NCBI GenBank assembly: GCA_044892505.1 | Contig: CM097883.1 | Span: forward strand, 347,262,001-347,326,000 | Reading direction: 5' to 3' | Origin: Schmidtea nova | Lineage: Eukaryota | Length of the DNA: 64,000 bases | In this document: in pieces, positions 5,579-55,875 of the stretch | Position numbering within the stretch: position 1 is the stretch's first letter | Layout: every line of letters begins with the position of its first letter | Made by a program: the position numbers and the translations under genes | The notes under the pieces: generated by a model | The model's input: the letters and a program-made list of their open reading frames with translations, nothing else | What the model was told of the DNA's origin: nothing | The model's database searches: none

Positions 5579-6809
5579 TAATGAAGTTTAATTTCGTTGA
5601 TAGCGATTTTTGCCAAATTAATATGATTTCTTATAACATACTTGTTTCATACAAAAATAATTATTTTTACTTACTGTATACAATTAACCATGTCTAATTT
5701 TGCACTTTGTTGGATAATTTTTTTGAATTTTTTATTTTGATAGAATTTTGTTACATTTGAATAAAAATTAATTTTTTTCCTAATAAATCATTCCGTTATA
5801 ATCACATACAGTGTATGTCATTCACTGAAATTATCAACAAATTTATTATTGAGCTAAAACTTAAACCCTGAGGAGTTTGTTTGATTGGAACGGTTACATA
5901 GCATATAGAGTGTGCAAGAAGTGAATTTAAAATGCCATCAAAAAACATCAATTAAACACGAATAACCATGGAAACCCGACATAAATTAATTAAAACACGT
6001 TTTAAAAATAATATAAAATACTTCACATCAAGTAAACAAATATAAAACACAAAAATAACATAAATCACTAATTGCAGTAAATTTACAACAAACTAGAGAA
6101 AATTCAAATATTTTATGGAAAAGTTGTCGAATTATATCAATTAAATGGTAAAAACATGTAATAAAATTATTTGAATAGTGGCCAAGTCTCGACTAAGTAT
6201 TCACCTGCTAAAATTTTTCAATGATGCTCACTCAACAAAACTCGTAATTGTTACTCTTGACAACAAAGGAATATAATTTACATCTAGGAAAGGAGATGTT
6301 CTCAATAGTAAATTTGGCAATGAATTGATTTTTATCCGATATCCGTTGAATTACAAAAATAAACATAATATCATCACCGAATTAAAAGAAAATATACTTC
6401 AGAATAGCTGTTGCGAATTCTTGAATCATGTCGTGAAATTTAAATTGACCTAAAAATAGAAAATCGATAAATCATTTACTATAGAAAATTTTTTACCCAT
6501 AGTAAAAATTAACCAATATATAATGGAGAATCATAATGGAAATCAACCGTGAATCTAATTTCGGTGTCCAGTCTGAATAAAATAAATTTAAAATATAATA
6601 TCTATATAGCAGTGTTTCACAATGTGGGGCCCACACCCCACAAGGGGTTTTGTTTTTAAAAGGGGCAATAATTAAAAATATATAAAACAAATAAAAATTA
6701 AATTTTATGCAAAAATAAAAGTTAAGGACTGGCGAAATATGACTAAAATGTCTGCTTTGTAAAAATGAAACATCAACAAATTTAAATTTAAAAACCTGCT
6801 GGGAAAAAT

Positions 6810-7675
6810 TGTTGGGTTTTTAGGTTTTTGGTGAAATTTCAAAGTCACTAATCAAATTTCTGACTACAAATGTGTGCTTTATTAATCAATAGAATAACAA
6901 TTACAACATAAATCTTTATTGATATCACAACTGGTTACATTATTAAACTAGGTAAAATCAATCAACAACATGATACAATTATATAGTGCTTATTACAACA
7001 CTTATGTGAAGAATAGCACCTGTGTATAATATCCGTCCAACAACCACTAGCTACTGATTTCAATTAAACAATGGGTAACCAACTAATTGCTTTCTTAGCC
7101 CAACAAAAATTATCCTAATAAATTTCTCAATATATTTCTCTCGATACGTTTCTCAATAAGTGTCTCTCGACAAGTTTCTCAATAAGTTTCTCTCACAAAT
7201 TCTTGCCACAAAACGTCTGTCATAAAACTGATGCCTTTCCTTTTTATTGTTCGCAGTTCTCCGGCGCTCATAATTCTTTTCCCCATTCCTGTCGCAGGCA
7301 TTTGCAGTTTAATTTTTCAGCTCCCGTGTTACCCATAACAGGTTGGCACTCGAGATAATTTGTTTTTCCCTTTTTGCCTCTGTCACTTTCCAAAAGTTTT
7401 TTTTCAGTTCCCGTGTTATCTCTGATAGCTGTCAAGATGTCTATTTTGTTTTTCCAATTTTGGAATTCCTCTTTAATTTGCATTTATTAATTATAAGTGA
7501 CTTTTCTCCGCTTTATTGTTGAATCTGTTTTGTTTTTTATTCTTTCCTCATTTATCAATTTTTTGTTTTTCTGTTTTCTTCTCTAAGTTCAAGAATAATA
7601 TCTCAGTTACCCTATTTGTTTTCTACAAAATTCCGTTTATTTATAATATTATTTTCTCTTTAGATATCCTCAATA
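6810..7675 (-). mobile_element. Solo LTR (family B, related to 33705-34673)
   Basis: Starts tgttggg at 6810. Colinear blocks are shared with 33705-34673 (gcttatta..acact..tg.gaatagc; ttattaattataagtgac; tag(a/g)tatcctcaa(t/c)a). No TSD recognised. Confidence 0.65.
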
Positions 7676-7758: not shown

Positions 7759-10404
7759 CCCATTAAGGACCGTTATAAGTTAGGGTTTTTTTTGTTGTAT
7801 GTCTTGAAGTCTTTTAATTAGGTTTGTCATCGACTATGGAAAACCAAAAGTTCATGGAATTCAATTCACCCTATGTGGGTCAAACTTGCTGATCTCAGAT
7901 GAGATCAGTGGTCCTTTATATGCAGGAAATGGGTAGAAAGTGAAAAATATATGTTTCACTCAATAAACATGATAAGTTTCAAAACAAGTTTGATTTAAAG
8001 TTACATTGCATTTTTTACAGTAGGATCGGGTCTACTGCTTCAGTTCTCGCCATGACATCGTCCTTGCTCTTCTCTTCTGGCCATGAAGTGACCATTGCCA
8101 TCATATCTAAAATAACAAATGTCATTCACATACAACATGGCAATATTGTAATGCATAAAGAAATTTTTCACCTCACTGTATTAAAATTGCTTGATAGCTG
8201 TGCCCCTCTCTTCACTGATGGATATTGACATTGTTTCATGTATGCCATGGCTATAGCTCTGGTAAAATCCAGAATTGAAGTCTTATTACCATGTACCACG
8301 TTGTGTAAATGCCAAGCATTTGTGACAAACATTTGTAGAGCATTTATTACAAGTGGCCAATACCATTTTTTAGAAGTGATAGATATTTTGTAACAGTTCA
8401 CTGCATTGTCTGTCAAATCCACACAACCCATTCCTTGGTTGTAGTGTCGAATCAACGCTGGTATGGAAACGTCAACAGAGCCTTCTCGTTTTTTCCAGCG
8501 TACAACTATTCAGTCAATATTTGCAGAACAAAAATTTGAAGAAATAACAACTGCTTTATTGTCCATCCATTTCACAACCTGGATTTGGTTTCTTTCATCA
8601 AACTGAAAGTCGACACTGCCACATCCGGCTTTGTTTAACTCCTTCTCCGTTTTCAGTGGACACTTCATTAGTCTGTTTTCTCTACATGTCACAATAGCTG
8701 GCGTATTCATTTCTTTTAATTGAACAAATAATGGATAAGATAAAAAGAAATTATCAAAGAACAGAATATGTTGTGCAGGTTCGGTAAGCAGCTTTGCAAA
8801 ATGTAGCACTACTTTCAGACCAAGAGGGACGTTAGTCTTTTTCCTACCATCTTTCCCACAATAAAGATTGAATTGATAGCAATATACTGATGAGCTGCAC
8901 AAAAGCTAATTTTTCAGGCCAAATAGAATTGGTTTGTTAGCAATAAATTGCTTCAGGGGATGTCTTCCGTAGTATTTCACAATTTGCTCATCCACAGACA
9001 ACATTTCGTGCATAAATTGAAACTGTAGAAAGTTTTTATTCAAAATGTCGTACAAAGGTTTGACTTTGAAATTTCGTTTCGACGATTGTGAGAGCTTTGC
9101 GTTATTATTGAAGTGGATATACTTCTTTATTTGCATGAACTGTGCTCGGGGCATAGTATTTGCCACCAAAGGAACACTTAAATCCTCAGCATCAGACCAA
9201 TATAACTTTTGCTGTGGTCTTTTGTTGTATCCAGTTAATAATAAAATTCCAATAAATCCTTTTAATTGTTCATCAGTCATTGAAAATGCGTGATCATTCT
9301 TTTGTCTTGCATAAATTCGAGTTTCTCGGAGGATATGATCTCGGAGTAATTTTGAAAAGAAGAGTTCAAACAAACCAACTTTATCCAAATGAAGACAGGT
9401 TTGAATCATCCATTCTGTTCTTGTTGAATTAAAGTCTTCCTTTATAGAATTGGCGAAATCATGACAAATTGGCTTCCATTTTGGTTTTGAAACAGATTCA
9501 GACATTTTTTCTTTATTGTTTGATTTCATATTAACAACTTCATTAATTTAAAATGTACCTACTACATCACCAACAATGTCTTCATCATCCATCTCATCCT
9601 CATCAGTATTTTCATCTACATTTTCTGGTGGTATAAACACAACATTACAAATATTAGCACTATTTCCGCTGAGAATGTGATTAGCCACGTCTTTAGTAGT
9701 TCTTTTCGATAAAGTTCTCAATATCTAAAACAAAAGTAAGAAATGAATGAGGTAATTTTTTAAGAGATACTTCCTGCATGCAAATAATTCAGCGCTAAAC
9801 AGTACAAAAGTATTCGCTAAGAGATATTTTAATCATTCCCAATTTGAGCCCTATTCAGAATTAGGTCACTTTACCTTAGTGACAAGGTTAAAAAGCTAAA
9901 AATATTGTTCATTAATAAGTAGAAGCTGTTTCTAGTTAAAAATATTTATTATTTCATAGAACACTCAAATGGTTTTGAAGTGATCTCAAAATATGCCACT
10001 AGGTTAAAATTATTCATGCAGACGACCAGTGATCTCAAACGAGATCACACAGCTTTGGCGCTGTGAAAATACCATTTAACAAAACTACTCATGTTTCATA
10101 TGTTTATTACACTGATAATATTCTATGATCGTAAATGTTTTCGGGTTTTTATTATTTTAAATAATTTCTGACAGATGAAAAACTTACTTGCAAAGAACAA
10201 CACAGTTTTTTCAAAAAATGGCCAACTTTAACATTGTAAAACAAAGTCAAATCATGAAATAAAAATTTACTTTCAAGGTTAAAAAGTAAAAACTATTGTT
10301 GATCAATAAATAAAAACTGATTAAAGTAAAAAATATTCATTATTTCATAGAACACTCATAGGGTTTTAAAGTGATCTCAAAATATGCCAGTGGTCCTTAA
10401 TGGG
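7759..10404 (-). mobile_element. piggyBac DNA transposon, full length with defective transposase
   Basis: Perfect 13-bp TIRs cccattaaggacc (7759-7771) / ggtccttaatggg (10392-10404), flanked by TTAA at 7755-7758 and 10405-10408. Subterminal inverted palindromic repeats at ~7890-7913 and ~10022-10045. Confidence 0.95.
8005..9779 (-). pseudogene. piggyBac (DDE_Tnp_1_7/PGBD-like) transposase pseudogene
   Basis: Motifs SVDEQIVKYYGRHPLKQF, FFDNFF, YNQGMGCVDLTD and a Cys-containing C-terminus; in-frame TAG at 8906 and frameshifts; probable 46-nt intron at 9725-9770. Confidence 0.9.
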
Positions 10405-17800: not shown

Positions 17801-19389
17801 TTATATATAAAAATAAATCATATTCACAGTGATAAGAGGCCGGATTAAGATCATTGGAGGTTCTAAACACTTAAAAGACCTTAGTGTCCTCGTATATATG
17901 TAATCCAAAATATAAACAATAATAAACCGTTAAATAAAACTTTATTTATCGAAATAAAAATCTTACAGTAGAATGAACAATAATGTTTATTTTTGTATAC
18001 TTTCACTTTATTTATATGTGAAAATTCCTATCTACTTTTTAATTAGTCTTTCATCAGATTTTAATAGAGATATGCCATTTCAACTGAAAAAATGAACGCT
18101 CAAATGAGCAATTTGTGACCATTTATGTTAAAATATACGAAAGCCAATGTGTACATTTGAAAAGACACTCAATATGGTTTTCTACAATTATTTTGTAAAG
18201 TTTAACATGACTAAATCTTGTTTTTACATTTTTTGCTTAATTTAATATAAAATTAAAAAAATATCTCTTTTTATGTTAGTTAATAACCTGTCGATGAAAA
18301 ATCATATCAACCAATAAAAATGATAAATACAATGAAAAATCATATCACCCAATAAAAATGATAAATACAATGCAATATATTTGTTTCGCTCCATGTTGTT
18401 ATTTTAATCCTGATATTTTGAAGAAAAATAGTTAAACAGAGAATGCTAGCTTTCAGGATCAAAGCAAAAATCCATAAGACCTCCTTATTCATTTTGTGAA
18501 AATGGCGTTATACATACACAACATATATATATATATATATATAATGTAATATCTCAAAAAAATTTACAAGTTACGTAATCATATTTTATTGAATATCCAT
18601 AATAACATTACGTAAGAGTAGTAAAGTTCCATGTATCTGTTATATAATGTAAAATATTTAACTGTAGGAATTACGGGAGTGGATATATGATAACTTCGCA
18701 ATACTTTATCTATTTTATTTATTTGGTTAATTAATGATATAATCGACAACAAAAAAATAAAAAATTTCTAATTTATTTATTAAACATTTTTCGAAAATTT
18801 TTAACTTTATTATTTTTTCAACAATTTTACAAAAATATTGAGATTTTATAAGTAAAAAAACTGCGCTCCTCCGAAAAATTTCCACATAAATAGTCTCAAC
18901 TCCGACAATTTCAAAAAAATAAATATAAAGCGCAAAGGGATAAAAATATATTTGCACATAAATTTTATTTGATTTACATAAAATTACTTCATCCCACACA
19001 AATTTTATTTTTGACACATATTAGATAAATAAAATAAATTTTATGTGCGAAAATACCCAACAAAACACAAAGATGAAGAGTTATACATAATAAAATTCTC
19101 TTATAAAATTTTAAGTCGTCACTTTTAATATACAATTTGATCAAGCTTGTATATTAAACTTAATAATAATGTAAATTTATACATAAAAGATGCTTAATTT
19201 ATGACACTAATTCATTATACAATAAAATAATTAAAAAATATAAAAAAAACATTTTACATAATTAAAATAAACTAATAAAGAAAAAATAAAACATTATAAT
19301 TAAAATAATTAAAAAAATTAAAAAAATAAAACATTATAATTAAAATAATTAAAAGTAAAACATTAAAAAATTATTATAGTTATTATTAT

Positions 19390-20283
19390 TGTTGGGGTTG
19401 TTATAATCACAGAAAATAAATTTAAAATTGCACAAATCAATAAAAATACAAAAAATTGGAAAAATAATAATTAATGTTCAAACATAAATTAAAATAAAGT
19501 TTGAGCGGGGGAAACTGGTATGGGAGGATGCCAAACGACGAGACGAATTCGAATATGGGTATATAAAAATAAAAAGGGGCCCCAGAAGGAAATAATTAGA
19601 AAATACAAATTAATTAAAATAATTAATTATTCTATAGAAAACCCGAGCTAATGGGAAACCCGAGCTAGTAGGAAATCTGAGCGATGTGGGAAACCCAGGG
19701 CATCAGCGAGGTCATTAAAATATCGAAATAAATTGAATGCCCCAGGGAGAGCCGGAAAAACCATTAGCGGCAAAGATCCAATTGGGACCAAGCAGATTTA
19801 ATTAGTTTTCTTCTTCGACAAGATCCGATTACGACCAAGCAGATTTAATTAGTATCCTTTTTCGACAAGATCCAATTACGCCGACAGAATGGCAACAAAA
19901 AATGGTATAAAAAACGGAGAACAAAGTGCCGAAATTGCCAGTTGGTCAAAGCTAATTTCTCGAGCCAAAAAAGTGGTCGAAGATAAATTTCAAGCATAAA
20001 CAGAACCTGTCAAACAACTAGAAGCTATTTGGAGGAAGCGTGTAGAGAAAACCAAAGGTAGAAATTAAATTTAAATCTTCTTGCGTGCCAGAGAGGGAGA
20101 TATCCCATTGGGTGTTCTACCCTCACGCGGAAGAGTGCAGAGCATTAGGAACTTTCTGTGATAAAAGTGTTATTATTCATTGGAAAAATAATATAAAGTT
20201 ATTGTGTTGGGTTTCATTTATTTTCGTTATTGAAAGAGAACACAGGAGTCAGAAATTACCGACTTCACAATAATAACCCAACA
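19390..20283 (+). mobile_element. 5' LTR (family A, 894 bp) of a Gypsy element
   Basis: TGTTGGGG...CCCAACA termini; internal short tandem repeats (gaaacccgagcta; gaccaagcagatttaattag); followed by PBS and gag; homologous to the reverse complement of 25001-25898. Confidence 0.8.
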
Positions 20284-20287
20284 TATT

Positions 20288-20305
20288 TGGTGAGCCCGAC
20301 GTGAT
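20288..20305 (+). promoter_or_regulatory. Primer binding site, tRNA-Trp type
   Basis: TGGTGAGCCCGACGTGAT lies 4 nt after the LTR CA end. It differs at 1 of 18 positions from the known tRNA-Trp PBS TGGTGACCCCGACGTGAT. Confidence 0.85.
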
Positions 20306-20565
20306 CAAAGTCGGTGAAGCATTTCCAAAAAGAAATTAAATATTTATTGGCAAAAAGAAATTGAAAGTTGCAGTAAACTTCTGAGTCGGTGAAATTTGTT
20401 TTGAAATTTTGAAATTGATTAAAAAGTCAGTAAATTGAATCAAGGATTAATAAAAGTTTGTTGAAAATTGTGGAAAGATTTATACTGTTGAAAATTAAAA
20501 TAAAAGGTAAATTTTATAATTGATATATTAAAATTTAGAAGAGAAAAATTTGTACCAAACCGACT

Positions 20566-21064
20566 ATATTACGAATTGAGAAGTAATAAACAACCAGAAA
20601 CAAAAATGAGTAACACAAACGGTCATGATGACACACCCATGTCCACCAGCAACGGTAATGGCAATGACTGCTAGCTGCCAGAAACTGCCAGTAAATCAGT
20701 ATGGAGGCGATCCGGTGGAATTCGTTGATTTTATGGCGGATTACTACATGTACGCTACAGCCTATGGATCGAGCCAAGCGACAATGGTGCAAGGGTTGCC
20801 ACTTTATCTAAAGGGAGCAACGAGAGAAGCCTGGCAACAAATTGACAAAAGAACAATTGCTAATGACTGGATGAAATTGAAAGATGCCTTAGCCGCGAAA
20901 CTCATTGGAGGGGATATAAAACGGACAATGCGGCAGAGGTTCTATAATCGAGTGCAAAAATCAGAGGAATCGGCAAGTGAATTTGCGTACCACTTGACTA
21001 CTCTTGCAGAGAATTTATAGGTCGTTCAGCAATAATAGAGAGATTTTGCAAATTCAAATTTGTA
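20566..21064 (+). pseudogene. Ty3/Gypsy gag capsid N-terminal part (frameshifted, runs into an N gap)
   Basis: SCQKLPVNQYGGDPVEFVDFMADY...LPLYLKGATREAWQQI...DWMKLKDALAAKL...FYNRVQKSEESASEFAY has a retrotransposon-gag pattern and lies downstream of the PBS. Confidence 0.85.
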
Positions 21065-22255
21065 NNNNNNNNNNNNNNNNNNNNNNNNNNNNNNNNNNNN
21101 NNNNNNNNNNNNNNNNNNNNNNNNNNNNNNNNNNNNNNNNNNNNNNNNNNNNNNNNNNNNNNNNNNNNNNNNNNNNNNNNNNNNNNNNNNNNNNTAAGTG
21201 GGTATAAATATGAATAATGATAATACTAAAAGAAATCTATGTATTTTTCACAGGCAGGTATCCAAAAATACAGAGATCTAATTGGTTAGAACATCTATAA
21301 TATAATTATCGATTGAATAACCTCATCTCCTCGTAGAAGAAAAATGCCACATCTCCAACTAGTGTAAAGCATGCTGATTACATCTCCGATAGTTAATTCT
21401 ATTGCTTCGTTTCAGTTGTAAACGTCGTGATTATATCCAGAAAGCTCTATTTGAGAAAATAAGTTTTATTGCGCAAAAATTACACGAGACAAATTTGGAT
21501 TTCCTTCGGATGAAATTAAAATCTCTTTTTTGCAAATTTTTGGGATAAAAATTCGTGTGTAAATCTGTGATATATAGATAAATGTATAAATATTTATAAT
21601 AAATATATAAAATATAACTATATAAATATGTAAATATATAAATATAATAAAATATNNNNNNNNNNNNNNNNNNNNNNNNNNNNNNNNNNNNNNNNNNNNN
21701 NNNNNNNNNNNNNNNNNNNNNNNNNNNNNNNNNNNNNNNNNNNNNNNNNNNNNNNNNNNNNNNNNNNNNNNNNNNNNNNNNNNNNNNNNNNTTGATAAAT
21801 ATAATAAAAATAAATATAAATATAAAAATAAAGTAAAATAAAATAAAATATTAACTTACAAAATTGGCCAGATGGCCGCATTAAATATTTTGGGGAAAAA
21901 TTGAGAAAAATAAATTAATGGGGAAAAAACCACTTCTTACCGATTATATTGCGGCGGCAGCCTTTGAGGGCGATATCGGAGAAGCTGACCGCATAAAATT
22001 TGAGCAACATGGCAAGGCAAATGGGATTTCCCNNNNNNNNNNNNNNNNNNNNNNNNNNNNNNNNNNNNNNNNNNNNNNNNNNNNNNNNNNNNNNNNNNNN
22101 NNNNNNNNNNNNNNNNNNNNNNNNNNNNNNNNNNNNNNNNNNNNNNNNNNNNNNNNNNNNNNNNNNNNNNNNNNNNNNNNNNNNNNNNNNNNNNNNNNNN
22201 NNNNNNNNNNNNNNNNNNNNNNNNNNNNNNNNNNNNNNNNNNNNNNNNNNNNNNN

Positions 22256-22544
22256 AATAAATAAACCTTAAAATTTTCTTCAAAGGTAAATTACTGTTTT
22301 CAAAAAAGGTTTTTTGTCTTATTGATGATTCTTTTCTGCACGGCCTAGAATATCGATACCTTAACCCATCAGAAGTTTTTTTCGAGGGTATCAGGTCCAT
22401 AAATTGATTACAGTTCACTTTCGGGCAAATTTTATGAATTGGTAAAAGCCCTAAACCTTGTAAAAATGTAATGGTTTGCTCGGTTGTTTGCGTATTAAAA
22501 TGAATTAAATTTTCATTTACATTGTCCAAGTCAATAAAATCCAT
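22256..22544 (-). pseudogene. Merlin/ISXO2-like transposase N-terminus (rest in N gap)
   Basis: FLQGLGLL...ICPKVNC...M...DGLRYR...CRKESSIRQKTFFENSNLPLKKILRFIY, typical of eukaryotic Merlin N-termini. Confidence 0.7.
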
Positions 22545-23628
22545 AAATTAATCTATTAATTAATTAACTTTTTTATTTAATATTTTAAAAACTGACCAAT
22601 CATTTGCTGTGGGGGGAATTCCGAATTTGTACCCAATTTTTAACAAATATCAATATTAATTTGTCAAAGTTAACAAAAAACTCTTGATTTCAAATCATGT
22701 AAAGGGAATATTTGATCGATTAATATTTTTCATTATTATAAATTTGATAATTTTTTTCACTGTTTTTAAATTTATCTTAATTGTTGAAATATCTTTAAAA
22801 ATATTTTTAATTTACTCAAAACAAAAATACAAAATAATTATTTGGAGATATTTTATTGGAAAGGTTCTTTTCGAGTTTTTCTTTGTAACATTTGATCATA
22901 ATTGAGGTGTGATAAAATATTTTATTTAATCTCGTTAAGCAATCATAGCAAGAGAGTTCATAAATTAGGTTATAATATTCGTGGAGTTCTGTTCTATGAC
23001 TTTAAATTGTTTCATATTTCTGAGGTGCATCATTAGATATTTGTTGTATCCGATCATTTTGGCTAATTAGATATTCTTTATTGTTAAGACAATCAAAAAT
23101 AATTAATTCTTTTGTAATTTTTACATTTGATAGAGAACTCTGTCAATAAAGTTATTGAAGTTTTGGACTCAGTACTGAAAAGGTTGTCGGCGTCATTGCC
23201 AAATGATTTTAAACATTTTTTTAAAACAATTTCAATTTTTGATGAACAAAAATAAATTTTTGTATTTAATTTTAAATTCCTTCAACAAATTTCTAACGAT
23301 TGGTACTTTGTTTTGCATTAGATCTTGCTTGTTTTCTAACAAACTTATTTAAATGATTATAGATGTATATTATTATTTTTACTTTCACCAAGGAAGTTAT
23401 GTTTTTTTCGCAGTATATGGTTGTTTGTTTTTTCTACTGACGGTGTACAAAATGTTTAAAAATTTCTCAGACTGCAAACAAAGTTTTCCTTGCTTTTATT
23501 TAGGTGGGGAGGATTTCCTTTCGTCTATTTCATGACCCTTGGCCGATGTCTGCAGTCTGCATAATACCGAATGAATTTTGATAGTTAATATTTCCAAAAA
23601 TCTATTCACTTTCAACCGAATAATCTTG

Positions 23629-27603: not shown

Positions 27604-28942
27604 TCAATTGACTGTAACCGTCTTCTTCAGTGATATTTCGTCACTTGTTGTTTGTGTTTCCTTTTCTTTGCATACTTTCCGTTTCAATGCTCTTTTTACT
27701 CTTACTGCATTACTTTTTATGACATTGAGTTTTCCTTCCCTTATTACTTCAGCTTTTTGTACGGGTATTGTTTGAATTATATCCACTGTATGGAACTCTT
27801 GCTCGATTCCCTGGATTTTTGATTCCTTTTTCTCTTTCGGCTCATCCAATGTTTCATCTGTTAATAATAATTTTCTTTTCCTATACTCATTTAGTGAACA
27901 TATTTTCTTGGCTACTGGTTCTACATAACCCACATCATGTTGCCATTGGCTCTCGATAGCCAGATAAATTCTCCTGTATCTTCCAAGGCTGAATTATTCC
28001 CTTTTGCATTTTAATGTCACATATCTCTTCGGCTACTATTGATAATTTGAACCATTTTCCATTACTTGCAACTTTTCCCGAATTCCCCACAATTCGTTTG
28101 GCTTCACTCCACTGTAATAATTCGATTTGTAAATCATACCCCATTAGGATTTTTCGAGCTGTTAATTCACGGACTTTCTTCATGCTTTGATATTGATCTT
28201 CTTGATTTCTTGACATTTTATCTGTGATTCCGTGAATTTGTGTTACGAAATTTTTCAATTTTTCTCTTTGAGTTATCAATGAGCTATATAATATTTTGCC
28301 CGAGTACTCTATTAAGCAGATGGACAATGGGATCATTTTATTTTCCTCACTTACTCCATACTCGGCGTCTATGAATATGATATTCCTCCTGATTTCTTCA
28401 TTGGATATTTTTCTTCGTAAAAATGATTTTCTATGCTTCAGCATCTCCTCATTAATTGGCATCAAGCTATTTTCTTCCTCATTTGATAGAATTTGTTCTA
28501 TCATCGCATTGCGGAAATTCTCAACCTGCATTCCAAAAAAAAACCCAACTCTGTTAGCCGCTCCCATTTTCTTCATCCAAATCTCTTTTGGAATTCTCCA
28601 TGACGTGTTGTTCGCCATTGTCTTAAAAATTGTCCCATCGTTTTCAAGAATTTCTACAGTTCCCTCAAAAACGTTAACTTCCCAATTTTCTTCCTTTTAT
28701 CTCAACAAGAGCTCTGAAAACTTCATGTTTGATCTCCAATCCATTTCTATTAGGCAGATTCTCATTTCTTCTTTTCCATTTCTGGCCCAATTTTGGATTT
28801 TTAAATTTTCTTCCATTAAATTGATTTTTTCGGTACGACTCCTGTTTTCTCTATAATATTGAGCATACAATTTGGTGGGTTTGTTTATTTGTTGCATTGA
28901 ATTAAATATCTTCCTTTGTGATTTTGAATGAGTATTTTTCAA
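27604..28942 (-). pseudogene. Accessory ORF with REX4/ISG20-like DEDDh 3'-5' exonuclease domain (27935-28618 is the main piece)
   Basis: ExoI IFIDAEY (D 28367-28369, E 28361-28363), NFVTQIHGIT, ExoII KILMGYDLQIEL. ExoIII is recovered as MQKGI(H)SALED by restoring one C near 27995, and that frame continues into ORF 27604-27933. Confidence 0.8.
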
Positions 28943-29149
28943 GTCAGTTTTTTTTGAAAACCGCTATTTTTTATACACAAAGTTTCGTTGACCAATCAAA
29001 TCACACAACCAATAATTTTAATTTAAAATTTTAATAAAAAGGTATTGTTTGTTTTAATAAAGTATAAATCACTGAAAGGATATGAAAGAATATTAAAGAA
29101 AGTATTACTACGTACTGTCAATATCATGCAATGAAATAGTATCTTACTA

Positions 29150-30153
29150 TACAAATGTTTCTAACCACCTCATTCTCAGTGGTTTCGAGTACCGTGAATG
29201 ATTGTTAGTCTTGTCCGTTTTTGAGGTGATGACGATGTAAATGAGTAGAATACCGCTTGGGATTATCATAATTACGCATATGAGAAATGCATCAACACAA
29301 TTATGAATAGATATTTTTTTCAGAGTTCGTCGATTGATTATTGTTTTTTAACAATGATAGAGTTAGATTGCGATTATCCTTTTTTTTCTTTTGAGACGTT
29401 ATTATTAAGCAAGTTAATAAGTTTATTTTCAATAAAGGTTATTTGCCTTATATCCGGATTTGTTTTTCGTTTACAATACTGGATCTTCATCATGAATTTG
29501 TTTGATCTTGTTTTGGTTTCTGTAGTTCGAGGGTTGAGCTTTGCTGTTGTCTGGTGCTCATCCAGCACCACCTGAATCTTATTATTTATAAAAATATTTA
29601 TTCTTTCTTGATATTTACTCCTGCGTGAAACAGTTATTTCGTTATTATTGGTTTCCACTTTAACTCGATCCGTTTCGTTACTGAGATATATTATTTCGTA
29701 ATGAGTTTATACCTTTGTCCATCGATTATTCATATAGGTTCCATTATCATTAAAGAGTTTCTCGTAATATACTATTGAAAGACTGTAAGTGAGATTTTAT
29801 TGTAAGTTTTCGTATTTGACAAAAGATCTCCTATTATTTAGCGTGTCGATAGTATAGTTTTGAAAAATAATTTTAACTTTCTGTTGGTTTTCTGCTTTCC
29901 AATACACATGGATTTCGTTTACCATAGGTTCAATTTCAACAAAATTTCTCCACTCTTTTGTCATTATGTGAATTTGTATTAGATTGTAAATCTTTTGAGT
30001 TGCATTTCTTTGAGGATTACGTTGCGTAATTGTCTAAATATATTTATAGTTTGTCGTCAATTCTCGCGCTACGTACACATTTTTATCGTAGTTTAATGTA
30101 ATCAATGGTTCAAATGGATTTAACAGATTGTTAATTTCTATTTGCTCTTTAAT
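29150..30153 (-). pseudogene. Decayed type I membrane glycoprotein with FN3-like repeats
   Basis: One frame with three stops: YVARELTTNYKYI, EIHVYW, VKYENLQ*NLTYSLSIVY (FN3-like); sequons NAT/NYT/NLT/NGT/NET; after one frameshift a TM-like AFLICVIMIIPSGILLIYIVIT (~29223-29289). The N-terminus lies in or beyond the N gap. Confidence 0.5.
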
Positions 30154-30875
30154 NNNNNNNNNNNNNNNNNNNNNNNNNNNNNNNNNNNNNNNNNNNNNNN
30201 NNNNNNNNNNNNNNNNNNNNNNNNNNNNNNNNNNNNNNNNNNNNNNNNNNNNNNNNNNNNNNNNNNNNNNNNNNNNNNNNNNNTATTATGTTTAGTTATA
30301 TAAAGTTTGTTGTTAAGCTTTATGTTAGTCGGGAAGATATTGAAGAGTCCGAGAGAGTCTTCCAAAAAAGTTTCGTGTGGAGACCCTCGGGGTGTGTGCT
30401 TATATAATGCAGGGTTCTACACAATTCGAAATTGGAAAATGAAAAACAAAATAAAATAACAATTTAACAGATTTAGTAAAAAAATGTATTAACGTTACTT
30501 TAAAAAATTTCTTTCAAACTATGAGGGATTTGTTTAGAGAATGGTTGAATTGACCTCGACAACTTTCTTTGTAGGAATGGTTTTCAGTTTTTTTCAGTTT
30601 ATAAATCACTATGTTGGAAATCAACCTCGACCACTTTCTTTGTAGGAATTGTTTTTAATTAATATTTTTAATTTGTCAATTGATTTTTTCTTTACTATAG
30701 TTTATTACTATAGTTAATTCTATTTAAAATTCAAAAGTTAAATTTTATTATAAAAATTATAATATTTATGCAAAAATAACTTAAGGAGGGTTACAACGCC
30801 TTCACAATAATAATAACAATAACAGATAATAATAAAGACACATTTGCAAAATAATAAATATTAACAATTCATTAC

Positions 30876-38938: not shown

Positions 38939-39557
38939 TCATTCATTCTACCAATTTTGAATCGGTCATAACCTTCACACTAACACCAATACAATCACTT
39001 GAAAAAAATAAAAACTGATATACATAACAACATCAATCTCATTTTGAAAAAATAATATATTTCTACGTAAATCCAATAGCTCGGTAAAACAAACTGTTCA
39101 ATAATTTAACAAAACATTCAATAAAGTTTTTATATAATATATAGTTTTTTCATTAATCAAATCTTATATTTACCAAATTTAAAAGCGACCAACAAAGTAT
39201 CATTACATAGAATTATGGATTTCTTTGGTATTAAACAATAACTAGAAAGAATTGAAAGAATTTCTAAAATGTTGGATAAAACGGTGGCAATGTAATAATA
39301 ATAAATGTAATGTAGCATAAAATTTCACACAACATTTTATATTTCGTATAACTTCGTGTTCGTGTCTTATATTTACGATTTGCAATAGTGTTGAGATTTG
39401 TTTAATCGAGTATAGTGTATATTGAAATATTTGGACATTGATTTCTGTACAATCATCAATATTTTTTAAATAGGTAAGTAAACAATAGCAGTTTTAATTT
39501 AATAACATTAGCAGTTTTAATTTAATAATTAAATTATTTTTATTAGAATATCCCAAA

Positions 39558-41516
39558 ATGTCATCAAAAGAAATTTATTCGGAATACACAAAGCAATATA
39601 AAAATCAAAATTCTGTTTGGATTCATTTTTTGAGAGGATCAAAAAAACTAACAGCAAAATGTAAAATATGTAATGAAATAGTAAAAACTTCTGGTTCAAT
39701 GACAACACCGCAGCACACGCATTTAAGAACAATACACAATATTAATGTATTAAAACGTGATTTCGTGCAAGATAAAGTTCCAGAAAGCAGCTCATCAAAA
39801 ATGATGATTACAAATTATTTAGTCAACAAAAAAGATGAACAACTTTCTGCAATTGTATCACGAATGTGTGCCTTGGATAATATGCCATTCAAAATTTTTT
39901 GTACGTCTATCGATTTGAGAAATTTATTTTTGGCTAGAGGCGCTCGAGATTATGTACTACCAAAATCACCTAACTCAATTCGCAAAATGGTTTTAGAATA
40001 CGCACAAAAAATGCGTGCTAAAATGATGCAGGATTTAATTAATTTCCAAAGAAGATGGAACACGATTTTGCTTAACTATAGATGAATGGACATCATTAAG
40101 AAACCGATGTTATTTAAATGCGAATGTCCATGGCAAGAAACAAATTTGGAATTTAGGTTTAGTTTAGGACGTTTCCCTGCAGAGAAATGCATTACGGCCC
40201 TGAAAATCACATTGCAAGACAACAATCTAAATATCGATAAAGATATTACGTCCATAACAACTGATGGGGCAGCTGTGATGCAAAAGGTTGGGCGGCTTTT
40301 ACCATGTAATCAGCAGTTGTGCTTTGCACACGCGATACATTTAGCTGTAGTTAATGTTCTGTATAATAATTCGAATACAACTGATGAATTGGTGGCTCAC
40401 ACAGATACAGAAAATGTTAGTATAGAAGAACAAGGAAGTGACTTCGAGAAATCAGAGGATGAGGAATACATTGATGATAAAAGTGTTGGCTTGATTGAAC
40501 AAATTTATATTGAAGCTGAGCATGTTGAGACTGAAGAATTTGGATTTGGTTTTCTCATCAAAAAAGTTCGTTCAATTGTAAAGAAATTTCGTTTTTCGAG
40601 AACATCGAATGATATTCTTCAAGTATACTTGAAACAAGAATTTGGAAAAGAGTTGAAACTTATTATGGACACTAGAACTAGATGGAATAGCTTAGTCGAA
40701 ATGCTTGAAAGATTTAACCAACTAAAAAGTTGTGTTAGAAAGGCATTGATTGACATTGCGTTTGATATCGTTATTCTAGATGCTGAAATTTTCTCGATTA
40801 ACAACATGATCTCTGCACTTCCCCCAGTGAAGCTTACTGTTGACGCCCTTTGTCGAGAAGATGCAAATCTGCTTTCTGCTGATGCGGCATTGTCTTTTAT
40901 GCTTGAGAATTTTGGATCTGATGAACTTTCACTAAAATTGAAGAACGAATTAGAAAACCGAATAACCCAAAGGTGAACAAATGTGTCTGGAACTCTTCAG
41001 TTTTTACACAATGGCGGAAAAAGTGAGATTCACTAATCTTTCACTAGACCATTGAAAAATACAATAGCCAAAGTTATTGAAAGCTTTGCACAAAGATTGA
41101 TATTTAACACTAACATGGAAACTTCCTCATGCGAGCAGTTAGAAGCTGAAGATGTGGAAGAGGTGATGTCGGAAGAACAAACCAATCCCCAGTCGTTATT
41201 GCAAAAGTTGCAGAACAAAATTCAATTGAATTTATCGTCTAACATACCTTCCAGCAAAACTCAACAAATAACAAATCGGAGCTTAATTTTAAAAATTAAA
41301 TCTGAAATGAAATTTTTTGAAGAAAACGGCGTTCGTGGCAAAATATTAGAGTCTGTCTACTCATTTTTGATTTTGATTCCGCCATCGAGCGTGGAGTCCG
41401 AGCGAGCCTTCTCAATTGCAGGTAACTTTTGTACAAAGGTTCGATCGAGACTCGGAGACACATCTTCAAGTGATCTCTGCTTCCTTAAAGCATATTTTAG
41501 GCAAACACAAGAATAA
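39558..41516 (+). pseudogene. hAT transposase with BED zinc finger (frameshifted)
   Basis: VWIHF...AKCKIC...HLRTIH (BED); TIDEWTS, TDGAAVM, CFAHAIHL, TRWNS and IPPSSVESERAFSIAG; frameshifts and an in-frame TGA at 40974. Confidence 0.92.
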
Positions 41517-43038: not shown

Positions 43039-43500
43039 TTACATTGTGACGAACAATGTGGTATTTGCGTAGTTCGCCTCCTCCATTGCTAATTGGATGA
43101 CATTTGTTTTTGATATACGTAAATGCATTTGTTTACCCCGCAAGAAACAGGCATCAAGATTTCGAATTGCCGTCATAGCTTGTGGGTGAATTGCAAACAA
43201 CACCAAAGCCGTATTTTTTTTGTTAAAGGTAATTGTAACATTTGCATTGGCCATCATGATATTGTTTGCTTTGATCATTTCTTTGTTATTTCGACCGTAC
43301 ATTATTAGAGAGCATATTAATCGCCCAACAGTTGGACATTGTGCTTTGCTAAATCGTTTTGTTTGATAACGGCCAGCAGACTGGGGAATTATTTTTGCAT
43401 ATTTTCCACTATAATTAATGCAATCTGCCAATGACAGATCGACAGCGCGAACATCATCAGTGCTCCATTTAATGAAAAGTTTAAAGTCAGACATATTCAC
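43039..43500 (-). pseudogene. PTB/hnRNP-L-like RRM fragment
   Basis: [50 protein letters not shown] resembles PTB RRM3 ([50 protein letters not shown]); the rest is not PTB-like. Confidence 0.6.
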
Positions 43501-43724
43501 AGTTTAACACAGAACACAAAATTATTTATATAAATAAATTCGACAATGCAAAACGTATATTTAAAAATACAAAAAAAATTAAAACAAGCGTTTTTTTATC
43601 TTTTCATTTTTTTAATACAATTTCTTTTTTTATATAATTAATTATATATTCAATATACTCTTAATATATATTTAATTTATATTTAATATAAATATTAAAT
43701 ATAAATTTCTGGAGGTAAGCGTCT

Positions 43725-45109: not shown

Positions 45110-45610
45110 ATGGATGCGAGTGATTATAAACATTTAACTGAACCTATTAAAGTTGTTATTAAAGAATTTGCACACGCTATCAAAGAGCAAAGTAATTCCG
45201 TAATTCCAGTTTCAACAATTGCAACGATTGTAAATGAAGATCAAACATTTCTGATTCTTTATTACCGACATTTGTATGCTTATCTTTCCAATTCAATTTC
45301 ATTAAAGGATGGACTTGCTTCTTATTATAATTATTGTGATTTGTTCAATTTTATTTTAAATGCAGAAAGACCAATTAATCTAGTTCTACCTGAACAATGG
45401 CTGTGGGATATTATCGATGAATTCATTTACCAGAATCAATCATTTTGCCATCACCGTAACGAATTGGCATTCCGGCAAGATCTAAATGAGGAATTAGAGA
45501 AATTTGAGAAATCTGCTTGGACTATTCGCGCAGTTTTGAATATTCTTTATTCTTTTGGTGGCAAATCCAATATAAATTAGCAGCTGCAGGCTTATGCAAG
45601 CAGCGGAGTC
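45110..45610 (+). pseudogene. EIF3L: eIF3 subunit L N-terminal processed pseudogene fragment
   Basis: FLILY-YRHLYA, SYYNYCDLFNFILNA, LPEQWLWDIIDEFIYQ and KSNIN*QL match eIF3L; internal deletions, a stop and 3' truncation; no introns. Confidence 0.88.
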
Positions 45611-45719: not shown

Positions 45720-48700
45720 TTATTTATTTAGTTACGGAAACGAATAAAAATTATTATTTGGCCTTTCATTTGCTGATTATCCAATACTCTTAATATATAT
45801 TTAATTTATATTTAATATAAATATTATTTTTATTTATATATTAATTATATCACCACACGCCCCTAACGAACGGTGCGGAGCAGTAACATGTGGTGAAGAA
45901 AACGCGAGTGCGGCAACAAGAGAAACAAAAGGGAAAGAAGGAAAGAAAAAAGAAAAGAAAAGAGATGGATCGAAAAGAAAGAGAATTATATTCACAGTAT
46001 TCGATGCAGTCTAGTTGAAGCGTTAGGATTATCTCCTATACGGCGTTCGCGAACCCATGGGTTGATTTGGGTTGCATTTGTAGTAGAAGCAGTCTTAAAA
46101 TGAGCCATGGGAGATTCTTTAAAAATTGAAAGTGGTCTAGAAGTTTCGTTGCTAGCCGGTGAACCGATTGTTTCCGGGCTACCGGTGGTGTTCTTGCCAT
46201 CAGAGCTAGAAGTCCAATTGGTTATATCCGTAGAAGGTATATCTGTATCGTGCGAACAAGTATTTTTGGTAAGCACGACCGGTGAAGGGAGAGTTGAATC
46301 CACGTCTGAAAGAATGGGTGGTGATCTCAAATTGACAGATGTTTTATTGGTCTGTGCTGAACTGTTTATAAAAGTAGGGACAAACTTTCTAGCGTTGGGC
46401 TCGAGAAATTCCGAAAGTCCGAATGCCGGTTTAATACGTGTGAGAGAGATTGTTTCGGATGAACCGTTAATGTTGACTGTTGCATAGTTCCCAACTATAC
46501 CTAGTAGCCGAAATGGTCCAGTATATCTAGGCTTTAGTGCAGAATCAGCGATAGCACGAATCCATACGTGTTTAGCAGAAGATAGAGATTTCGGTATAAA
46601 AGGTTTTTCGGCGTTTGATGACGAAAAAATTGGATTGCTATCAATTTCAAGGAAATGAAGTTTGGCGGTATTGAGTTCTTCGATCGTTCGTTGTTACCCG
46701 AGGTCGATGAACTCGTTTGGAACTGTAGTGTTCGTATCGAATAGTAATTGAGCTGGGGACGATTCGGTTGTCTTGTATGGTGTGTTTCTCCAACCCAATA
46801 ACACAAAAGGCAAAGCTTTTGTCCAGCGATAGTTTAGAGAAAGTATACGTAGTGACTGCTTGAGTGTCCGGTGAAATCTCTTGATGAGGCCGTTCGTCTG
46901 TGGATGATATGCAGTCTAACGCAGTCGTTTGATGCCAAGTTGTTCCGATAAAGAGGTAAAGAGCTGTGATTCGAATTGCGCTCATCTGTCTTGAAACCCA
47001 TTCTGAAATGAAAGATTCAGCGACTATATTTGCTGAGACAGAACGTAGAGGAACATCTTCACACCATCTTGTCTCCCTGTCTATCATTGTTTAAAGTAAC
47101 GAAAAACCACTGTCTATTGGCAAAGGGCCGACAAGATCAATGTGAACGACATCAAATCGATTGCCTGTTGGAAAGTGTATGTGTGGTGGTTTAACATGTC
47201 GAGTAATTTTGTTTTATTGGCATTTCAAACACTGACTAACCCATGTTTTAGTATCTTGTCTCATAGAGGGCCAAACGACTTGATTTCTTAGCAGCTGATA
47301 AGTGGCGGTCGAGCCAGGGTGATGTAAGTCGTGAACTGCACGGAATGCCTGTTTTCGAAGCTCGAATCCAAGAATAGGTCTAAGAGTTACCGAAAGTGAG
47401 GAGTCAAAATCAATGCCGTCCACGTTTGATTTATGGTGCTGAAAATATTGTAGATCAGCTTTGGTTGGCTTATTCTCTTGCAGAGTGGAAATAGTAAACA
47501 GGGGTTCCAAGGAGATAACGTTGGCACTACGTGAGAGAAAATCAGCTAATTCTCTTTGCCCGCTATGCATCTGATATCGCTGATGAACTCGGTGATGAAA
47601 GAAATTTGACGTAACTGCCTGGGAGAGGGATCCTTTATAGTGGTTAAATGAACCAACGGCTTGTGATTAGTTTAAACTGTAGTGGATCTACCTTCCAGCA
47701 AATGTTTGAAATGTTTAATTGACAGAAATATGGCTAAAAGTTCCCGATTGAACGTGGAATATTTGTTTTGAGTTTCGGTTAACTTCTTAGAAAAAATTCA
47801 AGAAGTCAAACTATACCATCTTGTACCTGTGTTAACACAGCGTCAAATGCGATGTCGGACGCATCTGTGGTTAGACTGAAAGGCAGAGAATACTTTGGAT
47901 AAGCCAAAGTCTGAATTTATTCAAGTGACTTTTTAGCTTCGATAAACGAAGCGTCAGATTTCTCTGTCCATTTTATAATAGATCGTTTTGATCCCGGACT
48001 GAGCAAAGTCAAAGGAGCAAGAATATCAGATATCCTAGGTATGAACCTGTGGCAATAATTGACTACGCCTAAAAAGCTGCGAATCTGCGGGACAGTTTCC
48101 TATTTAGAAAAATGTCTGATGGAATTTAAACGTTAAGTTTGTGGAGCTATTCCATAAGGTGTGCAGATAAGGTGTGTCCCAGAAATTGTACACTTCATTG
48201 AAAGAATTGACATTTGGAACGATTTATCTTGAGTTGATGTTGCTCTAAGATTTTAACGAGTTTAAATAGATGCTGTTTATATGTTTCGGCATCAGGCGAT
48301 GTGACTAAGATGTCGTCAACGTAACCTACTACATAATTTAGTCCGGATAATATGTGATCGATGTGTCGCTGGAATGTTTGTGCAGCGTTCCGTAAACCAA
48401 AAGGCATTCCCAAGAATTCGAAGAGACCTATAGGAGTGGTGACAGCTGTTTTTTTCACATCGGATGGAGCGACAGGAATTTGGAGGTATGCCTTCGCCAG
48501 ATCGATCGGAGAGAATATTTTGTTCCTTGTGAATCTGGCTAAGGAATCCTTTATAAGAAGCATTGGATATGAATCGTGCTGTGTGACGTTATTCAAACGA
48601 CGTTAGTCGCCACATATCTTGAAAGAACCGTCTTTCTTAGGAACGAAATGGATCGGAGAGCCCCAAGGTGAAAAATATCTTTGGATCACTCCTGCTTGTA

Positions 48701-49670
48701 ACAAATTATCATATTCTGTCTTCAAAAATGTCAATTTTCTCCGGAGATCAGGCGCACTCTCTCTCTCTCTCTCTCTGAGAGGCGGTGAATTCACATTAAG
48801 GATTTGATGATAGAACCTTTGGTCTAAAGATCCTGTTGTAGGAGTGAAGTTATCATCGAAAAATCTATTAGTGCGGAGTTTGTCAACAAAGTTCGTGAAT
48901 AGATCGATAGAGAATGTATTGCATTCAGGAGTTTGACTAGAAGCGTCATTTAAAGACGTGGAATTAATATTGGGAGCGATGATGGACAGAGAGCGCTTGT
49001 TGCAATCGATGAGGATATTATTATTTTCAAAATAATCGATGCCCAGAATTGGATATGGTACATCAGCGATGCTGAAAATCCAAACGAAGGTTTTGTTGAT
49101 GTCGCTCAGAGTGAATTGTACTTCGGTGGTTCCACGCGTGCTCATAAAAGCTCAATTAGCTGCTTTTAAACGGAATCGTGTGTTGCTTTGTGTCGCTGTG
49201 CATTTGAGAGGTAAGAAAGAAATGCTCGAACCTGTATCCACCAGACAGGTCATCGTATTCTGTGAATAGTTAAGTAATGAAGGTGATAGAAGAAAAAAGA
49301 AATAAAAACGAAGAGGAAAAGGATGAATTGAGATGACCATCGACTTCAGTCGCATGAAACGATGGCAGTACTAGTTTTCGATTGCTTGTTGTCATTGGGT
49401 TCTTGTAAAGTTTGGAAGAACCTGCAACCTTCGAGACAGCATCTGGCCATTTTATTGAACTTGCCGTGGTATATGCAGAGGTCTATATGTTTGCAATCCG
49501 CCTTCTCATTTCTGTAATTACACTCGATCTGGCAACTGTGTGCGGAAACTCCAAACCTCTGATGATAATAGCATATCCATGGACTTTTATTATGTGTGTG
49601 GTCACGTGACTGTGATCTTGGTCGCTTTCGGTCCGTTGATTTATATCTTGCCTCAAGCTTCTGAACATTT
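45720..49670 (-). mobile_element. Decayed Ty3/Gypsy element, CsRn1-like (gag tail, PR, RT, RH, IN, PPT, 3' LTR start)
   Basis: CHCC motifs (~49430-49580); LVDTGSS; SPWGSPIHFVPKKDGS; IDLAKAYLQI; MPFGLRNAAQTFQR; YVDDIL; TTDAS; HHPG...CLKC; HIDLVGPLP; YTGPF; TTAGGGGCG PPT at 45858-45866 followed by TGTGGTG. Many frameshifts; no 5' LTR seen. Confidence 0.92.
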
Positions 49671-50443
49671 CTAGTGAGATTTATTTTATTTTACTAGAGA
49701 AAATGCATGAAAAACTCATCATAAATCACCCTGTAATTTTTAAAAATGCCAGGCCTCACGAATCGAAAGTCACTGTAAATTAATTACATGACAATTTGAA
49801 ATTTTGCCGCATCCAACTTACTCGCACGATCTATCACCAACTGATTTCCACTTATTTAGAAATTTAAGTCTTTATATCAATGGAAGGAAGTTCAAAAATT
49901 TGGAACACATGAAATCGACAGTTATCACTTTCTTTGACTTGAGACATGAGACTATTTAAAGAAGGTATAGAAAAGCTCCCAAGACGATGGCAAGACTGTG
50001 TTTAAATCAATGGCTCATATTTTGATTAAATAATAAATGTTTAAATATATTTGTAGCTCTTTTAAATTATAATCCATTTATCGGACATTTCATTCCGAAC
50101 AACCTAATATATACAAATTATTTTTATTTATTTTTTAAAGTGACTAAAAAACTAAAAATATAATAACAACCCTAATTGCACCAAAATGAGTTAATTATTG
50201 TCAAGATTATTTTGTCTAGTAATATTTTGTAGGGGTGACATGATAACTATTTGATAATAAATTAATTAATGTTTTTTTTAATTTAAAAAATTAATTGTTG
50301 GAAAATTTTGTAAACGTTCTCTTAACCTTAAGACTGTATAAATTATCTTCCCAAACATATTTGATTACTAAAAACATTTTAATTAAAAGAGTATTGGAAT
50401 AATAGACAGATAATTATATTTCTTATAAAAAGTAATCTGGAAA

Positions 50444-53882: not shown

Positions 53883-54480
53883 TTCCGATCTAGTTTCTTT
53901 TGTACAGTAATAGCGAAACTGGAGGCGAATTACCGTATTTTGTAGGTAAATAGTATGTATCAGGTTGGTTGAAAACAATTGGAATATTTTGGAATGAAAA
54001 CTTAGAAGATGTGATCATGAAAGATAATAAAAAAATGCTTTGGCTCCAGTTAATAAAGCTTTACCTGCTGTATCACAAATGTTTCCTTTCATTACAAATA
54101 TGTTTACCAAAAATGAACTGAAACCTGAATCAGTGGGACGAAGACGTAAAGAGAGTAGAAAGCGTATAAACAATCAAATGAAAGGACATTGAACTATATT
54201 TGAAGAACGATTTGCGATAAATCTAAATTATGTCTTAGATCGACCATCTTCCAAACTAGTTATTGAAATTGGGGTATTTGAAGATGTATTTTTAATGAAC
54301 TCTTTAACAGATAGTAGAAATGATATGGAATTTACATTATCGGTTTTCAAACTGAATATTTAAATTTGAATGATACTTTATTATCCGTTACTGTCAAGGT
54401 TGTAGATAAAGATAAAGATAAATTAGCTGATTCAAGTGATGTAGTACATAATATTTAACTGTTTCAAAGATGCAATTTTT
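53876..54480 (+). pseudogene. Polinton small core-like protein remnant followed by major capsid protein N-terminus
   Basis: TGGELPYFVGK*YVSGW (GG cleavage-type motif), then PSSKLVIEIGVFEDV..NSLTDSRNDMEFT / TEYLNLNDTLLSVTVKVVD, an MCP N-terminal pattern; the gene order penton-core-MCP is typical of Polintons. Confidence 0.65.
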
Positions 54481-54590
54481 GGATTTTGGTCGCGCCCGCT
54501 CTTAAAATATTTTTAAAAATAATTAAATAATATTTAAAATAATTAATTGCAGAGCTTGATTGCTGTGAGAGATTGTGGAGCAAGCCTGAA

Positions 54591-54632
54591 GCCTTTAGAC
54601 GGTCTTATCGAAATCTATATAAATCTTATATG
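54591..54632 (+). other. Planarian spliced-leader exon (42 nt) fused to mRNA-like sequence
   Basis: gcctttagacggtcttatcgaaatctatataaatcttatatg matches the S. mediterranea SL as I recall it (GCCGTTAGACGG...TTATATG) at 41/42. It is followed by GAAT, not the GT donor of an SL RNA gene. Confidence 0.85.

Positions 54633-55818: not shown

Positions 55819-55875
<57 letters not shown>

Follow-up and report, generated by a model that had tools for sequence, protein, structure and literature searches.

Burro (GYPSM1) elements of planarians are giant Gypsy retrotransposons of >30 kb (PMC6431247), and for six errantiviruses of Schmidtea no long terminal repeat (LTR) or primer-binding site (PBS) is listed by a survey whose search reached 3 kb past pol (PMC13524379). 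In bdelloid rotifers, the Juno and Vesta LTR retrotransposons and the Terminons carry a DEDDy exonuclease as ORF3, for which roles in RNA processing or silencing have been proposed (PMC5408684); all papers are cited here from the portions of their text available to us. We analysed a stretch of 64,000 nucleotides from Schmidtea nova (contig CM097883.1 of assembly GCA_044892505.1, positions 347,262,001 to 347,326,000 of the forward strand; hereafter the window), which is AT-rich eukaryotic DNA crowded with transposon relics. On its minus strand we recognise, with moderate confidence, a dead and internally deleted large gag-env-pol Gypsy element, likely of the Burro/errantivirus kind, whose relatives carry as their last open reading frame (ORF) a predicted 3'-5' exoribonuclease, likely expressed from a spliced subgenomic RNA and likely degrading or holding host silencing or sensing RNAs. 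The initial annotation of this DNA had proposed the relic of a large Gypsy with an RNA exonuclease, and this agrees with the intact relatives: they prove to be large Gypsy elements in which an FN3-type membrane protein is joined by a DEDDh ORF at the 3' end.

The decayed exonuclease ORF of the window was used in a phmmer search of 1.84 billion representative proteins. This gave 71 matches (best E 1e-32), which by sequence comprise 61 members of one family, 5 cellular REX4/ISG20-like proteins and 5 DnaQ-like ones, the host REX4-like proteins beginning at E 2e-4. With the family member P0002 the window ORF shares 57% identity over 126 aa. Full-length members are mostly 420-660 aa. None of the 30 family clusters looked up has an informative name; the family was not recovered by word-based homolog search, and phmmer against PDB sequences gave no match. 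Pfam RNase_T lies above cutoff in 15 of 26 family proteins and matches the window ORF at E 1.6e-4 (22.7 bits, under the 24-bit cutoff), so that the profile search proposed in the initial annotation gave a sub-threshold match for RNase_T and no Pfam match for fn3. An atlas look-up of the intact member P0004 returned RNase_T/ISG20 clusters only (0.87-0.90), to be taken as a lead only. The AlphaFold2 model of P0004 has a pLDDT >85 over most of residues 1-320; its middle part matches ISG20L2 (E 1.6e-10), ISG20 (Z 17.2), PAN2 and SDN1 (Z 13.8) in Foldseek/VIA, and its N-terminus matches cupins (E 1e-4), ALKBH6 (Z 9.4) and ALKBH1 (Z 9.0). The intact member is predicted to consist of a cupin/AlkB-like beta-barrel, an ISG20L2/REX4-like DEDDh exonuclease and an acidic tail. 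Since the family's barrel has one conserved His only, as against the H-x-D...H metal triad, it is probably non-catalytic and not a dioxygenase. The ORF of the intact relatives is predicted to be a 3'-5' exoribonuclease; among 89 family rows the catalytic residues are kept as D in 69, E in 68, D/E in 70 (at ExoII, E in 40 and D in 30), H in 66 and D in 65, with 12 of 119 proteins left out of the motif count as too short. Also, a subgroup exists in which catalytic residues are lost, and such altered paralogs stand in tandem before active copies at loci L005, L006, L023 and L042, with open frames and a nonsynonymous diversity (pN) well below the synonymous one (pS). The family is under purifying selection, as 30 of 45 close pairs have a ratio of nonsynonymous to synonymous substitution (dN/dS) of 0.02-0.10 across the nuclease domain, the other 15 being saturated.

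A quick maximum-likelihood tree of 74 rows (near-duplicates and short rows removed) places the window ORF as sister to P0002 (support 99) within the family (support 85). The 6 cellular REX4/ISG20 rows, a thin sampling in which no row is known to come from the host of the window, form their own clade (support 95) with the window ORF outside it; in the comparison with host REXO4/ISG20 that the initial annotation had proposed, the ORF is thus not nested. The ORF carries the ExoI D-A-E (28369-28361), ExoII (28141) and SALED (27995-27978) motifs that had been reported, but not the ExoIII His, which is replaced by Asn and lies in a different frame from ExoI and ExoII. There is one stop in 300 codons, the frame changes, the tail is in a third frame, and a 13-codon in-frame deletion removes the family's nearly invariant G-[IV]-R-D motif. 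The window copy is a dead relic. A second, divergent copy (Table 1) is nearest to the catalytically altered subgroup (P0058/P0032) and contains a 191-bp tandem duplication; no gag-pol was seen beside it. The ORF is therefore multicopy in this genome.

To place the family in its genomic setting, a degenerate family motif was searched in viral and metagenome contigs. It is absent from the viral contigs and matched 46 metagenome loci, of which 37 are true by profile and 9 are chance matches that were dropped. The 37 loci come from three assemblies (24, 6 and 7 loci), and 9 of them have at least 2 kb of upstream sequence. Reverse transcriptase, RNase H and integrase (RT-RH-IN) are found upstream on the same strand in 5 of these 9 (L005, L012, L014, L019 and L023), the polyproteins being 1591-2967+ aa long. 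A Monjiviricetes fusion glycoprotein precedes the protease in the same frame in L012 and L019 (PF24664, E 6e-84 and 5e-94), and in L005 and L023 the integrase (IN) is followed by a second protease and ankyrins. The tail of the same polyprotein stands upstream in L018, a 99% twin of L005; TRAF/RING/MATH ORFs stand upstream in L004 and L046, and an FN3-type membrane ORF in L034. On the other side, the exonuclease ORF of L013 ends 190 bp before an LTR of ~1.6 kb (read by eye), which is followed by a PBS and gag; a regular-expression search for starts of a polypurine tract (PPT) and LTR found none in 17 loci. The family ORF in these relatives is positioned after pol and before the LTR. Most of the family-bearing contigs are 13-18 kb. 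A Polinton/adintovirus or RNA-virus origin, prompted by contigs of 14-17 kb, was dropped on finding RT-RH-IN instead. An acceptor-like YAG within 10 nt of the ATG is present in 20 of 32 ORFs (partly non-independent) as against 202 of 2941 background ATGs (6.9%), and this enrichment suggests a spliced subgenomic RNA, from which the exonuclease would be expressed.

Some further features of these loci may be noted. At least two aspartic protease domains are present in the polyproteins L005:4413-11483, L014:2865-7637, L023:3443-10102, L019:3-8903 and L012:1-8277, the additional one following the integrase in part of them and preceding the main protease in the rest. In one subfamily (at L035:1457-2434, and in L008, L017, L027, L036, L038 and L044) the exonuclease is directly followed by a conserved coiled-coil-like ORF of 326 aa. 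Other accessory ORFs, at L042:236-823, L046:7298-7882 and L010:1750-2328, include a ubiquitin-like protein, a RING finger and one with weak Pfam matches (E ~0.001, below cutoff), among them the C-terminal domain of the cGAMP synthase DncV.

In the window, the minus-strand LTR, PBS and gag of the initial annotation were recovered (Table 1), the three CCHC knuckles of the gag matching Pfam zf-CCHC at E 0.003. The PBS is, we assume, of the tRNA-Trp type. By tblastn the gag matches that of L013 (E 4e-4 and 1e-3), and it shares 68% nucleotide identity with a gag at 20669-20942. After the gag of this element, hereafter element A, env, protease (PR), RT, RH and most of IN are deleted, and the gag frame leads into one of two integrase tails found here, the other being at 31384-31220. 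This tail of element A matches the exonuclease-bearing polyproteins by blastp: L019 at E 4e-18, L012 and L023 at 2e-12, L005 at 4e-11 and L014 at 4e-7. A hydrophobic stretch beyond it likely represents the signal-like segment with which the membrane tail begins, and it follows the IN motif by 42 codons as compared to 46 in L012 and 54 in L019. Similarly, the distance from the membrane-protein stop to the exonuclease ATG is 249 bp in the window and 162-338 bp in 6 of 7 relatives, L012 being the exception (964 bp, with an ORF in between). The LTR-family sequence claimed at 26.9-25.0 kb is of the 5' LTR family in its first part (26950-26732) but of another family in the second (25757-25001), and the relative of the latter at 19260-20283 precedes the same PBS and a related gag. 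On these sequence grounds we consider it quite probable that, as the simplest reading, there is one element A made of LTR, PBS, gag, a large deletion, IN tail, membrane tail, exonuclease and an LTR fragment, split by a nested Gypsy, element B.

Table 1. Features of the window that bear on elements A and B and on the exonuclease family (window coordinates).
Feature	Position	Strand	Evidence or remark
5' LTR of element A, TG...CA ends, 969 bp	34673-33705	-	75% identity over 854 columns to the copy at 7673-6805
PBS, 18 nt	33699-33682	-	Identical 18-mer after another LTR, before a related gag, at 20288
Decayed gag, three CCHC knuckles	33400-32297	-	Knuckles at 32674, 32509 and 32386
IN C-terminal tail of element A	32296-31985	-	Gag frame; blastp to exonuclease-bearing polyproteins
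Hydrophobic stretch, split over two frames	31969-31925	-	9-mer Kyte-Doolittle (KD) value 1.96-1.97, slightly below the 2.0 threshold applied to relatives
Element B, nested fragment of an unrelated small Gypsy: PR half, IN tail, PPT, likely LTR	31910-30284 (both ends approximate)	-	Matches to the window Gypsy at 46-49 kb
Assembly gap, 130 N	30154-30283		Physical continuity across the gap putative
Decayed FN3-like type-I membrane protein: about three repeats, transmembrane helix (TM), short tail	30153-29149	-	TM at 29284-29228 in another frame
Decayed accessory ORF: cupin/AlkB-like domain, ISG20L2/REX4-like DEDDh exonuclease, charged tail	28897-27538	-	Family homology, Pfam, motifs
Candidate 3' LTR, truncated fragment (~220 bp) of the 5' LTR family	26950-26732	-	79.6% over 181 bp; 76% over 299 columns
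PPT and LTR of a second, related family, with an uncertain tie to element A	25770-25001 (LTR 25757-25001)	-	72% over 916 columns to 19260-20283
Second, divergent decayed copy of the exonuclease family	2114-396	-	tblastn P0058 E 8e-54, P0032 E 8e-14

Two more pieces of the window are related to element A. One, on the plus strand at 19260-21017, comprises a PPT and an LTR, then this PBS again and a gag that is related but better preserved. It is a relative of element A, either tandem or nested, bearing the other LTR family. An LTR of element A's own family lies at 6805-7673 on the minus strand, and as a purine tract precedes it and no PBS follows, it is likely a 3' LTR.

The initial annotation had also included in the cassette a piece with PR, an IN tail and a PPT, and a TATA-like motif near 30400. 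Both are present, but the first is better placed in element B. The PR and IN pieces (31.9-31.2 kb, with the IN tail at 31384-31220) match the other Gypsy of the window at 46-49 kb (E 1e-5 and 8e-5), and gave no match to the five exonuclease-bearing polyproteins (best E 0.72). The PPT of element B is the purine tract at 30890-30880, after which TG comes next, and we infer 30876-30284 to be its LTR. The TATA-like TATATAAG (30406-30399, minus strand) probably belongs to element B, and was dropped as a promoter of the cassette because it follows the PPT of B.

The membrane protein had been described as an FN3-like single-pass glycoprotein in the env position. A hydrophobic 19-mer at 29284 (KD 2.95) and six N-x-S/T sites in the stop-ridden upstream frame agree with a single-pass glycoprotein, but Pfam fn3 has no match in the window's frame, and a word-based homolog search found no longer relatives of the upstream frame. 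In the relatives, polyproteins L005, L012, L019 and L023 and the ORF of L034 end with a signal-like segment, repeats of ~90 aa, a Thr-rich stalk, a TM helix and a short tail, and L014, L030, L026 and L037 have Cys-rich ectodomains at the same place. One such repeat, when folded, is a seven-stranded sandwich (pLDDT 90.6) whose top Foldseek matches are FN3 domains (E 3.5e-4), the best being those of receptor phosphatases and cytokine receptors; the repeats also give weak Pfam Fn3 matches (E 0.004-0.06). A profile of 9 relatives' repeats matches the window frame with 25.4 bits in up to four stretches, a score reached by none of 2000 shuffles, and from this sequence likeness the window frame is likely FN3. 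The position assigned to it did not hold. The fusion glycoprotein of the relatives is in frame between gag and protease, on which ground the FN3 piece was dropped as env, and the 29-30 kb protein has no Pfam match at E up to 5. Among the relatives, the counterpart of this membrane piece either closes pol at its C-terminus or forms an accessory ORF of its own. It would act as a single-pass surface protein cut from the polyprotein end, possibly a decoy or adhesion molecule and not a fusogen. Elsewhere in the window, a 1.9-kb duplication of 99% identity (53937-55823 and 60803-62678) holds in each copy a short frame weakly matching the FN3 repeat profile (E 0.005-0.13).

Several observations weigh against the reading of a large Gypsy relic with an exonuclease as its last ORF. 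As for the window, its continuity spans the N gap and a nested element, and the two LTR pieces are only 76-80% alike, with no PPT seen at the candidate 3' LTR. The match of the membrane frame to the FN3 profile ranks 4 of 858 window tiles and has E 0.78 after composition correction, and the relatives' ectodomains gave nothing better than E 1.6 by tblastn against this frame. Just 5' of the window ATG there are, by eye, TATA/CCAAT-like motifs and no acceptor. As for the relatives, a single assembly supplied L013 and all five loci with RT-RH-IN, and no retroelement gene is seen in the 7 loci of the third assembly, their upstream parts being too short. None of the fetched loci falls in the subclade of the window, so that the link of the window ORF to pol rests on bracketing, pol-linked loci flanking the subclade on both sides in the tree. 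The identities of pol and exonuclease agree for the two closest pairs only (rho 0.55, 12 of 120 permutations; not significant), and 21 of the 30 dN/dS values are from one subfamily of seven loci.

A counter-defence role is put forward tentatively, as the likeliest one. The exonuclease would degrade or hold RNAs of host silencing or sensing pathways and, being encoded apart from pol, would do so within the cell. Four points favour it. The other cargo of the relatives targets host signalling (TRAF/RING/MATH, ankyrin and ubiquitin-like modules). One of the closest folds is that of SDN1, a nuclease degrading small RNAs. Inactive paralogs are conserved, as expected of an RNA-binding decoy, and they recall Maelstrom and EXD1, inactive DEDD proteins of the piRNA pathway (PMC5408684). 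Also, Burro is a target of PIWI, which silences it in planarians (PMC8532177). A wider and doubtful extension would make these elements an enveloped, virus-like flatworm retroelement lineage with a kit in the style of large viruses (an ISG20-like exonuclease fused to an AlkB-like RNA-binding barrel, active and decoy paralogs, and an FN3 receptor mimic), the exonuclease destroying piRNA/siRNA guides or proofreading reverse transcription. If true, this would be an enzymatic silencing suppressor from an animal retroelement, or a case of the size limit of a retroelement being lifted as by ExoN for nidoviruses.

Other readings can explain part of the same evidence. ISG20L2, REXO4 and PAN2 trim RNA 3' ends, and since the fold matches these enzymes, the exonuclease of the same element may trim the 3' ends of its own genomic RNA, primers or by-products (RNA or cDNA) in the particle. 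The same role has been proposed for the rotifer ORF3 (PMC5408684). We nevertheless regard this as unlikely, as packaging is not assured for an ORF separate from the polyprotein, catalytically altered paralogs are retained too, and ordinary Gypsy elements replicate without such an ORF. We give still less weight to proofreading of reverse transcription, by which the enzyme would permit an oversize element as ExoN does in large nidoviruses. Family proteins do occur on many contigs of 13-18 kb, DEDDh folds include proofreading enzymes, and a DEDD nuclease is found in the 40-kb Terminons as well (PMC6431247), but the closest folds are RNases (ISG20/ISG20L2/PAN2), ranking above DnaQ; the ORF is not fused to RT, its inactive paralogs are conserved, and rotifer elements of ordinary layout carry DEDDy as well (PMC5408684). 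Equally improbable is a broad reshaping of host RNA metabolism (pre-rRNA processing or mRNA decay) in favour of element expression: among the structural matches the pre-rRNA nuclease ISG20L2 ranks first, followed by PAN2, and the elements carry many host-modulating modules, yet a broad shut-off would be costly for an inherited element. Least of all do we credit a chance pile of unrelated relics, or an unlikely host REXO4/ISG20 pseudogene. In their favour, the region is a nest interrupted by a gap, made of two Gypsy types and no fewer than two LTR families, and the tree samples few host sequences. Against them, the N-terminal domain of the family is present in the ORF, whose place in the tree is apart from the REX4/ISG20 clade, and IN tail, hydrophobic segment, FN3-TM and exonuclease follow one another in the order and at the spacing seen in the intact relatives.

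The rest of the window holds other relics. An intronless 723-codon ORF at 52615-50447 (minus strand) resembles, as we take it, a La-related (LARP1-like) gene and is possibly a retrocopy. Fragments at 45110-45577 (plus) and 43042-43503 (minus) presumably correspond to eIF3 subunit L and ribosomal protein S5. Decayed transposons at 45995-49690 (minus), 39498-41513 (plus), 8171-9547 (minus) and 21918-22547 (minus) are presumed to be a small Gypsy gag-pol and hAT-like, piggyBac-like and IS1595-like transposase pieces.

We now compare these elements with the known systems. The fold and catalytic layout of the exonuclease are shared with cellular REXO4, ISG20, ISG20L2, PAN2 and SDN1, whereas the family is a separate clade, intronless, fused to a cupin/AlkB-like domain, often with E at ExoII, and has an inactive subgroup. 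AlkB-type capture is reportedly found in orchid Gypsy elements. The relatives resemble Burro, as far as its text describes it (PMC6431247), in having a single long polyprotein where a mononegavirus-like fusion glycoprotein stands in frame ahead of PR-RT-RH-IN (L012, L019), ankyrins (L005, L023), TRAF/MATH accessory ORFs (L004, L046) and a three-knuckle gag (window). In contrast, the text lists no exonuclease, FN3 tail or beta-barrel domain for Burro (the figure may differ), and its BIR, BCL2 and dUTPase were not seen in the fetched parts of the relatives. Burro exceeds 30 kb and has long LTRs, as against 969 bp for the window LTR, ~1.6 kb for that of L013, and 13-18 kb for most contigs; because of these shorter LTRs and contigs we call the relatives and the window Burro-like and not Burro. 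The gene order is also that of the flatworm GAG-ENV-POL errantiviruses with HSV/gB-type env, whose Schmidtea spans are 14.5-18 kb, and by eye the env of L019/L012 looks similar to the Smed_errantivirus_1 row (PMC13524379). The available main text of that paper has no 'exonuclease', 'DEDD' or 'fibronectin', and 7 of its supplements have no 'exonuclease' or 'DEDD'. Accessory ORFs after pol could explain the unlisted LTR and PBS of the six Schmidtea errantiviruses.

We found no report in the literature of a DEDDh ORF in such elements, although Repbase entries or published figures could hold such an annotation. The ORF fills the unannotated 3' third of flatworm gag-env-pol elements, and it bears on an open problem, namely how LTR elements grow to 15-30 kb and persist under strong PIWI silencing. 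With a conserved and selected nuclease as last ORF, one protein can serve for testing both counter-defence and proofreading, and intact natural copies exist, for example L012:9157-10542 and L019:9241-10728. As a concept, an exonuclease ORF in a Gypsy element is not new, because the rotifer DEDDy ORF3s described in the text of PMC5408684 are likewise stand-alone 3'-5' exonucleases after pol, with a D-to-E change in a motif. The rotifer protein is however DEDDy (RNase D/mut-7-like), and the family here is DEDDh (ISG20L2/REX4-like) with an extra beta-barrel domain. The family is thus an independent exonuclease capture, by elements that possess a true env besides. A second such capture by Gypsy elements, DEDDh here and DEDDy in rotifers, points to a recurring need.

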